Assembly: GCF_036588685.1 (NCBI RefSeq)
Contig: NC_086382.1
Location: 45,818,001 to 45,882,000 of the forward strand
Direction of reading: 5' to 3'
Source of the DNA: Mytilus trossulus
Lineage: Eukaryota
DNA length: 64,000 nucleotides
Shown here piece after piece: positions 19,173 through 25,100 of this stretch (positions are counted from its first letter, which is position 1; each line of letters opens with the position of its first letter). A program made the translations under genes and the position numbers. The notes under the pieces were generated by a model. It did not search any database and was not told the DNA's origin. It worked only from the letters and a program-made list of their open reading frames with translations.

Positions 19173-22100
19173 ATGGTGAGTACATGCGTATATTATTAAT
19201 CTAGTAAGGTTTTTGATATAATTAAAATTGTATAATGATATAATTAAAATTGTATAATGATATAATTAAAATTGTATAATGATATAATTAAAATTGCATA
19301 TTAAGATTTTATGGCTGAATCTTAGTGATTTAATATGCAACCCTGCATCCTCTCCAGCTGTTCATTGTTTTAAGTTGACAATATTTAAAACAACATTTCG
19401 ACTTTTAGATTTGTGACAAAAAAATGCATCACTTGGAGTTATTCAGTTTATAAATTTAATGGGCTATACTTTATTTTTTGAAAGAAAATTGTCAACTCAA
19501 TACATTTTTCAAATAATTATTGAAAGAATTAATTTTCTTAAATTTAGAACTCTGTTATTTTCGGACTTCGTTTCTTTTACGAATCACAGCTATAGTCTTA
19601 AAGCAAATGTTCTTATTCAAATAAATATTTCAAAACACACACTCCTTTATTTAGATACTTAAATCTGTCTGAGCAATCTTGTAACAGAATCATTCTTTCA
19701 ATGATCTTCAATGTAAGGAGCTGGACCAGCTAGCCGCTATGACGAACCAAAAAAAAAATGAAACCCATGGCACATGATTAAAACGTTTATGAATTTTTGG
19801 CTTGTGAAGTATTTTCTTCATTTAAAAAATCATATTAAAATCGGTATCAGATACATGTATACATGTTTAGCCCGCCGCATTTTTGCGACTGTCGGGGCCC
19901 AAGCCAGGAGCCTATGGCCTTTGTTAGTCTTGTATTATTTTAATTCAAGTTTCTTGTGTACAATTTGGAAATTAGTATGGCGTTCATTATCACTGAACTA
20001 TAGTATATATTTGTTCAGGGGCCAGCTGAAGGACGTCTCCGGGTGCGGTAATTTCTCGCTACATTGAAGACATGTTGGTGACCATCTGCTGTTGTTTTTT
20101 TCTATGGTCGGGTTGTTGTCTCTTTGACACATTCTCAAATTCTATTGTCAATTTTATCAAAAGTGCATCACTACAATCTGTTGGATACAACTTTTGCGCC
20201 CGAAAAAAAACCAGTATTGCATTTGTTGTAAAAAAGGGGTTGCATTCACGAAAATATCATCTTTTGCTTTTCAAGGCCATATATTGTTAAAGTAATAATA
20301 ATCATCAAATTAAACGTTAGTTTCGTCGGCAAAAAGTAAAAGCACAAAAATACTGAACTCCGAGAAAAATTCAAAACGGAAAGTCCCTGATCAAATGGCA
20401 AAATCAAAAGCTCAAACACACCAAACGAATGGATAAAAACTGTTATACTTCTGACTTGTACAGTCATTTTTCTATGCAGAAAATGATGGATTGTACCTTG
20501 TTTTATAGCTAGAGCTAAACCTCTCAATTATATTACAGTCGCAAAACATTCCATTACATTGACAACGATATTAAAAAAACAAACAAAAAACCCAGACATA
20601 ATAGATAAAAATGTCAAAAATACAGCAGTCAACATTGTGTTATAATCTTAATCATTTAAAAAAACAAATACAAATAGAATCATATTAAAAACAGTGTGGT
20701 CCTGGCCATTGATTGACGACCTAATGCGGGGTTCACACATTGCCGATTATTGCTCCCGTTTGAGATCAGACAGAAATACGACACGAAAAGTGAAAAAGTC
20801 GGATTAGTATCCTCAATTATCTGGAATGTCCTATCATTGTCTGAACACAGTCGTTTTAGTTCGTAACAGATTCTTACGGGTCGGGAAGGGTCCGAATAGT
20901 TCGGCAAAGCACCCCGACAGTTAGGTGCGTCCCGTAACATTCGGGACAACTCAGCCGATTTTGTCTAGTCGGATTACAATCGTGGCTATGTCGTGACAGA
21001 TTCTGCCGAATCGGATCGAATTCCGAACAATGTCTTGTGTATTCTGGACGGTGTCTTGTGGAACGGGAATGATCTGGAGTAATTTTTCATAGTTGTTTTT
21101 CTGCCGATTGAGTCCAGATTGCATCCAGATCTTGTGGATTGCGAACCGTTTTTTGCCGAAACCGTTCCGAAACAGTCCCGTTATTAATACGAAATTAATC
21201 AATGATACCCACGTCAGAGTCCCGATAATTACAGAATACAATACGACTGAGACCAGACAAAGCCGTTTGCAATGCGATAGAGCGGATCGTGATAGGATTA
21301 CGTTCCGTCAGTACCTGATCATCCCGAATTATGCCGACAGTTTTCTAACGGATATCTTCCGTCAGCGTCGGTTCACTGTCTTGTCACTGTCTGATCTCTG
21401 TCGGATTACGTTCGGTAAGGTCGGAACGAAGTCGTGACATACTCGGTCGAATTTTACCTGGCGAAAATTACAAATCGGGTTAGAAGCGGCTTCAGAACGG
21501 GATTATCGGTACTTATTCGCCTAGAAACGGTTGAGCAGCGGTCCAACGATTTACAGAAAAGAGCGACGATTTACAGAAAAGAACCGAAAAGGACCGAAAA
21601 GGACCAAAAAGAACCGAAAAGGACCGAAAAGAACCGAAAGGAGCATGTAGTAAACCTCTACAAACTTTACGATGTTCTTGATTCATTTCAATTTGTTTAT
21701 TCAATTTACGGTATAAAACGATGAGAATAAAAGGAGAATAATCAATTAAAAAAAATACATCATTATCTATATCTCTTGTTATAATAAAACACCCATGCAA
21801 CCACGCATCCCATATTGCTGATAGGACCCGACACAAATATCAATTTCGTGTTTCGGTAGTTAAGCTTGGGATGGTCAATTTAAGATGCATTATTTGAATA
21901 TAATCAAATATGAAAATTATTCATATTTATATTGATATATTTATATTTTTATTCTTCTTCTTTATATCTAGTTATTATGACAGATCTACCATCATCAGGG
22001 GTCCAACTGTCAATTTAATGTTAAAGTCTTTAACTTTGATCTACTAAGCATATCTCCAATACTTTTATGTTTGCTATACGCAACTATTGGTGCTGCATTG

Positions 22101-25100
22101 AATATTTGTGCACAGTCTTCATCGAACTGTAATAACTGCCAGTGTTTCATTATACGTTTCTTTATTTTACGTATATATGGATTATATTTAGTTATTAAAA
22201 CTAACGGAATACTTTGCTTCTCTTTAGATTTGTTTTGTTGTAATAAATCAGTACGGTCAATTGCTAAAGCATCAGTAATACTATCATCTATTTCCACGTT
22301 ATCATAACCCCTATCTAATAATTTCACTTTGAAATTAGTTAGATTGTTTATTAATTTGTTATGGTCACTTGTATTTCTAATTTGCCGTATTGCTTCACCT
22401 TTAATAAATCCTCTGAATACATGCTGTGAGTGACAGCTATTTCTGTGCAGAAACAGATAAGAATTTGTTTCTTTAAAATGTATTTCGAGGTCAAGAATGC
22501 CATATGTTGTAAATCTTTGACCTTTAATTACATCAACATCCAAGAACGACATTTTATCGTTTTTGATTTCATAGGTGAACTTTAATAAGGGGTTATAATC
22601 ATTTGCTAGACGAAAAAAATCTGTAATTTCATCTGATGTTCCATCATATATTATGAATCCATCGTCTCTATATCTGCCATGATAGAATATTTTGTCTTTA
22701 TATTGAAATGCAGAAATAATTTCATTCATTATTTCAAACATAAGAATGTCACAGATTTCCGGTGACGGAACTGCACCAATTGCCGTACCTATTATTTGTT
22801 TGTAAATTTTCCCATCAAATTCAAATACATTGTTTTCTAAAATGATTCTCATCAAATGTATTAATACATTGACTGGCGGAGCATTGACCTTGAAGTTCGA
22901 TTTGTCAAAACTGTCATATGCTCGTTCAACTGCACGCAATAATGCTTCTTGAGGTAGATTTGTAAACATCTGTGTTATATCTGGCAGTTATTACAGTTCG
23001 ATGAAGACTGTGCACAAATATTCAATGCAGCACCAATAGTTGCGTATAGCAAACATAAAAGTATTGGAGATATGCTTAGTAGATCAAAGTTAAATACTTT
23101 AACATTAAATTGACAGTTGGACCCCTGATGATGGTAGATCTGTCATAATAACTAGATATAAAGAAGAAGAATAAAAATATAAATATATCAATATAAATAT
23201 GAATAATTTTCATATTGATTATATTCAAATAATGCATCTTAAATTGACCATCCCAAGCTTAACTACCGAAACACGAAATTGATATTTGTGTCGGGTCCTA
23301 TCAGCAATATGGGATGCGTGGTTGCATGGGTGTTTTATTATAACAAAACATTGAGATCTATATATATACTGAGACTGAGACTACTATGTGTTAAAGTAGT
23401 ATCAGCTATATATTATAAATTTTGTGCACTATACAGTCATTTCATTTCGTCTTTCAGGAAATATAAATAAATAAAAAGCGCATCCGCTTTCGGTATTCCT
23501 TCAGATAGGCATCCGACCCTGAGACAACTATAACATATAGTAGTCTCAGACTGACCCTACCTGTATTTTTCACATCAGTGTACAGTAAGTTATTTTATAG
23601 TCCAGTCGCAGCATAAGGTTTCAAAACCTAATAATAAACTTTTTGGAAAAATATATTTTCATTTATAACAGACTTGAATAATTTGCAATTTGCTAATTTT
23701 CTTCGATTACCAAAAATGTCGATCTCCTTTTCGGTTCTTTTCGGTTCTTTTCGGTTCTTTTTGGTCCTTTTCGGTCCTTTTCGGTTCTTTTCTGTAAATC
23801 GTCGCTCTTTTCTGTAAGTCGTCGAACCCTTGAATATCGTCGCTTCCTGAACACTATCTGATTGTTGTCGTGATCAAATTATTTTTTTTTACAAATTTTG
23901 ATTTAAGATTGAATTTCCATCCACGATTCACAGGATCTTGATCAGACTTTTGAAAAATTTAAATCGGGAATGGTCCTATCGAGGACGGTAGTAAAAATCG
24001 TGAATGTGTGACCCCAGCTTAAATGATCCCATTGACTGGGACAGAATAGGTGAACGTTTGTCGGTAACAATCACTGCTCACTATGTACTTGATACTGAAT
24101 CTGTTGGGTCACCAAAGGTTCTCAACACCTAAATAAAGCAATTCGAAAAACGAATCCGGAATAATACGATGTGTTGATTGATATCAATAATATAAATCAA
24201 AACATAAAGGTTATTCCTGAATAATTTTTCGAATTATTTTATTATTAAAGGCGTTAAGAACCTTTGGTGACCCCACAGTTTAAATTCTATAATAAGTAAG
24301 AAGTGAGCAATGGTCGTTACAGACAAACGTTCACCTAATCTGTCCCAGTCAATGGGATAATTTAGGTCGTCAATCAATGGCCAGGACCACACTGTTTTGA
24401 ATATGATTCTATGTATCAAAGAAGCACAAAATATCACAGAGACCAAACATATTAGCAAAAATTAAAGACAAGAATGCACAAATTTACCATAGTACAATAA
24501 CATAATGACGGGATGTATAAGTACAGAGCCACGTCATATATATGTAACAAAGAAACATAAGAAGGCATAGAGACAATGCACGTAGCAAAAATGAAAGACA
24601 AGCAATAAACAAGTTTCGGAAGTAACACCAAATGGCATATAGACAAAGCACATTAGCGACAAAAGACTCATCAGTGAAACTAAAAAAAAAGGAATATTCA
24701 CAATAATAAAACTCATCAAATCTACCCGGCTTATAAATTTATACTTTAGACACGCGTTTCGTCTACAATAGACTCATCAGTGAAACTCAATAAAAAAAAA
24801 GTCGAAAACTCACAATAAAAAATACTCTTCACGCACAAGCTACATATGCTATATATCATATTGTATATGCTATGATTTAAAGTATGTTCCTCAAAAAATT
24901 GCAGAAATTAAAAACTTTGATTTTCTATACTTAAAGGTTAATGTTCCAAAAGCAAGACGTACTTTCTGTAAAAGTAAGGGATGTAGAAAGCACACCTTAC
25001 ACAAGGTTACCCAATACAAAAAGGGTAAAGCGTCTTTATATGCGGCAGGTAAGTTTTCTCAGAATTTGAACACTTTTACTACGTATTTTCTTTTTCCAAA

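Follow-up and report, generated by a model that had tools for sequence, protein, structure and literature searches.

Type I hammerhead ribozymes have been described at the 3′ ends of Penelope-like elements (PLEs), in their pseudo-long terminal repeats (pLTRs), where they have a G10.1-C11.1 pair and where an extra base between A9 and G10.1 is known; metazoan examples are minimal or have a tiny palindromic helix III and act as dimers, and a large helix III is found in fungal and protist PLEs deficient in endonuclease (Cervera and de la Pena 2014, PMC4209133). In the survey by Craig et al. (PMC8557442), File S2 lists loops 2 of up to 35 nucleotides (nt) and loops 3 of up to 31 nt; their split-core search extended to 17-nt spacers, with half-cores noted at 35-50 nt. 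The same survey describes 5′-truncated copies lying next to an inverted copy of the 3′ end, and a tail of 30-40 bp, as typical of PLEs, and reports that endonuclease-less (EN−) families occasionally arise within Neptune. Here we analyze a 64,000-nt stretch of the genome of the mussel Mytilus trossulus (assembly GCF_036588685.1, contig NC_086382.1, positions 45,818,001 to 45,882,000 of the forward strand), which we call the window. It holds a PLE-type reverse transcriptase (RT) fragment followed by a complete type I hammerhead whose core halves are separated by a loop 2 of about 125 nt. The motif is unusual in its loop and in its carrier, and its cleavage is predicted.

The hammerhead is present in two copies. 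The plus-strand copy (23119-23298) is complete, with stems I, II and III of 6, 5 and 7 bp, and the second copy lies on the minus strand in the body of the element. Their parts are:

23119-23124/23293-23298, plus strand: stem I, 6 bp
23125-23131, plus strand: core CUGAUGA, followed by an extra U at 23132
23133-23137/23263-23267, plus strand: stem II, 5 bp
23138-23262, plus strand: loop 2 of the plus-strand copy, 125 nt with 81% A+U; a G+C island lies toward its 3′ end
23268-23271, plus strand: GAAA, between stem II and stem III
22004-21824, minus strand: type I hammerhead, body copy, with the predicted cut after 21830
21860-21985, minus strand: loop 2 of the body copy, 126 nt

In the plus-strand copy, the 7 bp of stem III include A15.1-U16.1 and one G-U pair and close a 7-nt loop 3, while GUC precedes the 3′ strand of stem I and places the predicted cut after C23292. 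The core CUGANGA, GAAA and NUH stand in canonical order, stem I is open, and the G10.1-C11.1 pair is present. An earlier note on this DNA, made from the letters alone, had proposed just such a motif past the RT stop codon, and all of its parts could be located. A descriptor requiring stems of at least 5, 4 and 4 bp and allowing a loop 2 of up to 300 nt matched these two sites alone in the window; on both strands of 40 Markov-shuffled windows it matched none. The note had further anticipated that standard searches could miss the long-loop form, and Rfam was indeed silent: there were no matches in the whole window at the gathering score, no hammerhead family within 21600-23500 up to E=5, and no match on five related loci.

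The surrounding insertion was also read correctly in the earlier note as the 3′ end of a PLE. The element consists of a 5′-truncated body and an inverted duplicate of its 3′ end:

21776-22981, minus strand: 5′-truncated PLE body (C-terminal half of the RT, hammerhead, tail); contigs have loose ends at 21776/21777 in six of eight runs
22010-22981, minus strand: RT fragment, an open frame from motif A to the thumb, ending in TGA with no endonuclease behind it
21776-21814, minus strand: tail, 39 bp; contigs end loosely at 21814/21818, and depth in run X8 peaks over it
22981-23346, plus strand: 366-bp copy of the element's 3′ end in inverted orientation, abutting the truncation point
23308-23346, plus strand: tail in the inverted duplicate, placed by comparison with the left copy

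On the minus strand the hammerhead begins 5 nt past the TGA (22012-22010), and the 3′ end of the element, at 21776, lies 54 nt past the cut site of the body copy; contigs reaching this point diverge into other sequence. The 39-bp tail is seen, at contig loose ends, joined both to other sequence and to sister families. A PLE-type RT (RVT_1 match), 5′ truncation with an inverted 3′ copy and a 39-bp tail are found together. The body and the inverted copy are 99.5% identical over 367 columns. By its sequence, the second hammerhead is an ordinary inverted duplicate of a 5′-truncated PLE, arising from one event rather than two. The two copies claimed in the earlier note are both present, but they are not independent, because both are ends of one insertion. 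The insertion is embedded in a larger element of nested inverted repeats. Its flanks are AT-rich and non-telomeric and show no direct duplication; the copy is interstitial and has no telomeric repeats at its ends. Read-through by way of a selenocysteine insertion sequence (SECIS) was considered and rejected on the sole ground that behind the RT stop no frame or domain continues.

Variation among copies was followed in Logan contigs of four DNA runs, for which 40 of 122 substitution rows were shown. Eighteen of the rows shown fall inside the hammerhead, none of them in the 13 core bases or in stem I. Two rows are in stem II and one in stem III; the other 15 are in loop 2, a count that is weak on its own because loop 2 makes up a similar fraction of the hammerhead's length (126 of 181 nt). 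The two stem II rows, 21988 (14 contigs of run X8) and 21857 (7 contigs), are the two sides of a single pair and together would turn U-A into C-G. The 7-nt loop 3 contains four indel rows. These data support a pattern in which the stems vary among copies in a pairing-consistent way. The contigs also support the view that the long loop 2 is characteristic of the family and did not arise through damage to this copy. The tail (21776-21818) and the 3′ half of loop 2 (21853-21920) are common to sister families with other stem I and stem III sequences. In fragments of 13-30 bases from one of these families, the 3′ segment of loop 2 stands directly before the putative 3′ strand of stem III, and loop 3 may be where this family has the shared segment.

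Among the known systems, the mussel hammerhead resembles those of PLE pLTRs in its type I topology, the extra base between A9 and G10.1, the G10.1-C11.1 pair and its place at the 3′ end of the element (PMC4209133). It differs from the metazoan ones, whose helix III is absent or tiny and palindromic, in its 7-bp stem III and 125-nt loop 2, and in its large helix III it is closer to the fungal and protist EN− PLEs (PMC4209133). Like the EN− Neptune families, Athena and Coprina (PMC8557442), it combines an RT without GIY-YIG, an upstream open reading frame, ORF1 (here seen in relatives), and a hammerhead near the 3′ end. Athena and Coprina also lack an endonuclease, but they have telomeric repeats at their junctions and lie at chromosome ends, whereas the mussel copy is interstitial and without such repeats. 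The discontinuous Clec2 hammerhead (PMC6155905, PMC6765202) likewise has its core halves far apart between a stop codon and the RNA end; it is type III, with 150-1500 nt inserted in helix I, and belongs to a host mRNA 3′ untranslated region, whereas here a type I ribozyme in a mobile element carries the insert in loop 2. The anole PLE (Poseidon, PAc; PMC11167929) has a 30-40 bp tail, an AT-rich insertion site and a hammerhead, as the mussel element does; its ribozyme cuts only with the element's protein, and its tail marks two RT start sites. PAc differs in its C-terminal GIY-YIG, absent from the mussel element, and in its minimal hammerhead, which overlaps the start of the ORF. Non-LTR retrozymes from the same host genus (PMC7229834) share a type I hammerhead without canonical loop-loop bases. 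They are non-coding tandem repeats of 350-390 bp with compact ribozymes, whereas here an RT frame is attached to the ribozyme and no such array is found. The literature covered, which included the available parts of PMC7229834, PMC10294476 and bioRxiv 10.64898/2026.07.22.740005 and left Repbase, Dfam, Terminons 2017 and Lunse et al. outside, contained neither a PLE hammerhead whose loop reaches this size nor an account that could be matched to the RT clade described next.

The closest relative of the RT is a 647-aa protein of Mytilus edulis (P0001; 96% identical). A search for longer relatives returned 41 proteins, the top 33 clusters of which are 570-706 aa long and 38-96% identical, with no Pfam GIY-YIG match in any of the 33; other relatives come from Pinctada and Saccostrea. 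Proteins of the family open with a conserved basic Met segment, and the thumb is their last part. We then built a tree from 134 of 188 rows that covered the profile, using FastTree with Shimodaira-Hasegawa-like (SH-like) support only, midpoint rooting and no named references; its rows come from matches to a profile of the RT-only clade itself (a search of 1.84 billion representatives with the best 150 listed), and endonuclease labels come from our own profile. The tree places the RT in a 57-row clade (SH-like 99) of RT-only PLE proteins of about 645 aa with no endonuclease match and with bivalves among the named hosts. The neighbours of this clade resemble Neptune and Nematis in having a CX2-5CxxC linker followed by a C-terminal GIY-YIG, and the nearest outside relatives of the RT are likewise RTs with a C-terminal GIY-YIG. 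The mussel ORF stops after the thumb and so lacks the domain and linker that mark the endonuclease-bearing (EN+) Neptune and Nematis elements. Sequence relationships place the clade near Neptune-type PLEs, and we infer descent from Neptune by loss of the endonuclease. No named family could be assigned to the clade, the trees containing no named references; against the available part of the PMC8557442 supplement, three of four short clade motifs found no match and the fourth matched something unrelated. Naiad was rejected as an identity: there is no N-terminal GIY-YIG, the motif is mostly DKN or DKS rather than DKA, and there is no conserved CxC column. Smaller RT-only groups occur elsewhere in the same tree. 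One 744-aa Mytilus trossulus gene model (P0034) fuses RT pieces (97% over a quarter of the query) to a repeat-rich region. Viral contigs contained neither an RT relative nor a tail match, with 20 matches to a 16-base core pattern, and prokaryote genome contigs gave one locus of a distant RT whose 3′ end was not included.

Related loci show how the 3′ end is built elsewhere. Among 79 metagenome loci, four of the endonuclease-less clade had DNA behind the RT (L001, L003, L004 and L018). L001, whose RT is 42% identical, has a type I hammerhead at 4151-4309 with stems of 5, 5 and 7 bp and the same extra U, with 33 nt in loop 2 and 80 nt in loop 3. It is the minimum-energy fold, matched by none of 2000 shuffles, and is also missed by Rfam. 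L003 (RT 37% identical) has stems of 6, 5 and 6 bp and hairpin-extended loops of 22 and 17 nt; an 8-bp tandem repeat, probably the insertion target, begins about 50 nt past its hammerhead (2526-2684). The three hammerheads could not be aligned directly, as their long loops occupy different positions. By comparison, the core is compact and loop 2 short at 9 of 14 loci from endonuclease-bearing relatives. The two ends of the L001 contig join, giving a 4251-nt circle or tandem, and in L018 the copies are arranged head to tail. The tandem units, about 4.1-4.25 kb long, carry an upstream ORF in both loci, at 664-1395 in L001 (243 codons) and at 1600-2424 in L018 (274 codons, inside a 2.2-kb spacer). 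Both upstream ORFs encode 200-240 aa from the first Met, have a basic tail and lie 0.7-0.8 kb before the RT. The L001 ORF1 had no Pfam match and no homologue except itself, and its comparison with the L018 ORF1 and with the N-terminal extensions of 19 other PLE proteins gave nothing significant. L001 and L018 likely show the full unit of this element type. Head-to-tail tandems or pLTRs are not found in the window itself; besides these two loci, consecutive M. edulis accessions among the RT relatives suggest arrays of intact copies.

We consider it probable, with some reservation, that the locus is the 3′ end of an endonuclease-less PLE with a selected, monomer-type hammerhead that likely cuts tandem transcripts after C23292, probably only when helped to fold, and that tolerates its long loop as cargo. 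Head-to-tail arrays would be transcribed through, and the hammerhead would process the read-through transcripts. Selection would keep it as a monomer-type ribozyme, consistent with the stable 7-bp stem III. The naked RNA would be slow or inactive, and the helper would likely be the element's RT, or else the timing of transcription. The ribozyme strands would lie around other signals between the stop codon and the tail, because this stretch must hold them. The AT-rich 5′ part of the cargo would likely be transcriptional, and the 3′ part is predicted to pair with the tail, which, by analogy with the anole PLE, would mark two start points of reverse transcription.

Several observations weigh against this reading. 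The two stem II changes were not seen together in one contig, the stem III change at 21847 (8 contigs) turns G-U into U-U without a compensating row among those shown, and in one loose end stem I has a mismatch. Part of the loop 2 rows may also come from unrelated AT-rich contigs. Among the relatives, L004 and L018 had no hammerhead under a relaxed descriptor, the latter through an entire 2.2-kb spacer between tandem RT copies (904-3094; no canonical hammerhead), which may hold another ribozyme form or none. The stem comparison between L001, L003 and this family is partly circular because the descriptor demands pairing. Contigs of the RNA libraries X15, X16 and X17 cross the cut site; such contigs show no RNA ends and may be DNA. 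Folding predictions, made with nested models without pseudoknots and without protein, are also unfavourable. For the isolated 180 nt, stem I (0.96-1.0) and stem III (0.7-0.98) are predicted to form, with stem II at 12% and the active fold at 3%; a further calculation gives the 7-bp stem III pair probabilities of 0.98-0.99. With 60 nt of upstream sequence stem II is predicted at 7% or less, and with the tail present stems I and II fall to about 0. The naked RNA is thus predicted to be mostly in an inactive fold, in which two pairings stand out:

23111-23145, plus strand: predicted competing hairpin in which 23111-23116, in the stop-codon region, pairs with 23140-23145, early in loop 2, enclosing the 5′ half of the ribozyme
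23228-23339, plus strand: predicted long-range pairing (23228-23259 with 23303-23339) of the 3′ third of loop 2 with the tail region

The long-range pairing underlies an alternative in which loop 2 is a switch or clamp. Pairing between its 3′ third and the tail would tie cleavage to RT binding: formed as a pseudoknot it would support stems I and II (on), and formed as a long rod it would be incompatible with them (off). The predicted pairing is an interrupted rod of 24 bp with a 7-bp core helix (23249-23255 with 23310-23316), all Watson-Crick and worth -14.2 kcal/mol in stacking, which joins the only G+C island of loop 2 to the first bases of the tail and could form alongside stems I and II as a pseudoknot; such stem I-stem II pseudoknots are predicted in about 40% of hammerheads (PMC3088659). 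Of 2000 double shuffles 71 equalled the core helix, as did 106 of 2000 loop shuffles and 37 of 2638 window tiles, and the whole duplex (-23.0) was equalled in 116 of 2000 double shuffles, 289 of 2000 loop-only shuffles and 4 of 2638 tiles. Four of the five listed changes in the paired part of loop 2 sit on unpaired bases of the rod, and sister-family fragments retain both the loop segment and the tail, with one C-to-U change that keeps the pairing. However, the pairing was spotted post hoc (p about 0.04-0.14 overall and about 0.04-0.05 for the core helix), and the remaining listed change, 21868, breaks a core-helix pair, in one low-depth contig. Nothing comparable stood out in L001, where the loop 3-tail pairing was equalled in 747 of 1000 shuffles and the loop 2-tail pairing in 68 of 1000. 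Without the tail, 54 of 150 shuffled loops were as inhibitory as the native loop 2, which also left two decoy segments of the loop unsupported as selected inhibitors. We regard such a switch as unlikely. Its extension to the whole clade, in which a widespread group of endonuclease-less two-ORF PLEs of marine invertebrates would use hammerheads as scaffolds for long cargo in loop 2 or 3, and the mussel cargo would pair with the tail to form a natural two-state switch, linking self-cleavage to RT binding and keeping the cut halves attached to each other, strikes us as distinctly unlikely.

The hammerhead could instead be a relic, a compact ancestor split by an AT-rich insertion that no longer cuts, with its stems persisting through the young age of the family or through RT binding, and with the family spreading without cleavage. 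The predicted inactive fold, the L018 tandem without a detectable hammerhead and the RNA contigs across the cut site would fit, as does the finding that hammerhead mutants of the anole PLE left in vitro insertion unaffected (PMC11167929). The intact core and stem I in all rows shown and the paired stem II change speak against a relic, as does L001, where a long loop sits at another position in a ribozyme predicted to fold well; we judge this account quite improbable. It is highly improbable that loop 2 is a spliceosomal intron of the pLTR whose removal yields a compact ribozyme. PLEs do retain pLTR introns, the end of one in D. virilis abuts helix I (PMC4209133, PMC8557442), and loop 2 is AT-rich, but neither strand of the loop has a GT(A/G)AG donor or a pyrimidine tract plus YAG. 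Contigs from four RNA runs enter loop 2 from both stems, and no joint skipping the loop was found in them, with the limits that no single contig spans the loop and that DNA may be present.

Long-loop ribozymes are probably undercounted in animal genomes, because published lists of PLE hammerheads have short loops and Rfam models fail to detect this form at permissive E-values too; calls of 'no hammerhead' for retroelements need re-checking. The motif provides a 230-nt test RNA for the question whether and when PLE hammerheads cut. The finding also draws attention to a large RT-only PLE clade with intact bivalve copies that would integrate without endonuclease or telomere, and a two-state loop-tail switch, if true, could bear on the priming of integration without a nuclease of its own.

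The insertion sits within nested inverted repeats (20674-24412) with outer 51-nt arms (20674-20724/24362-24412) and inner 100-nt arms (21540-21639/23729-23828) that contain 10-bp tandem units; from their sequence, these repeats appear to be a foldback or non-autonomous DNA element hosting the PLE. To the right of the insertion are two small palindromic elements, at 23372-23552 (34-nt arms) and at 24020-24364 (nested 81-, 33- and 33-nt arms). Farther along the window, an exon-like frame at 24940-25050 ends at a GT donor and encodes a peptide that we take to be ribosomal protein L36a/eL42, and the region 25829-28954 holds a THAP domain (Pfam E 2.5e-15) followed by frames resembling exons of a DNA transposon protein. 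A dispersed repeat occurs in two inverted copies (16770-17023 and 19898-20157) that match piecewise at 85-91%, and four tandem units of 22 bp occupy 19214-19300.

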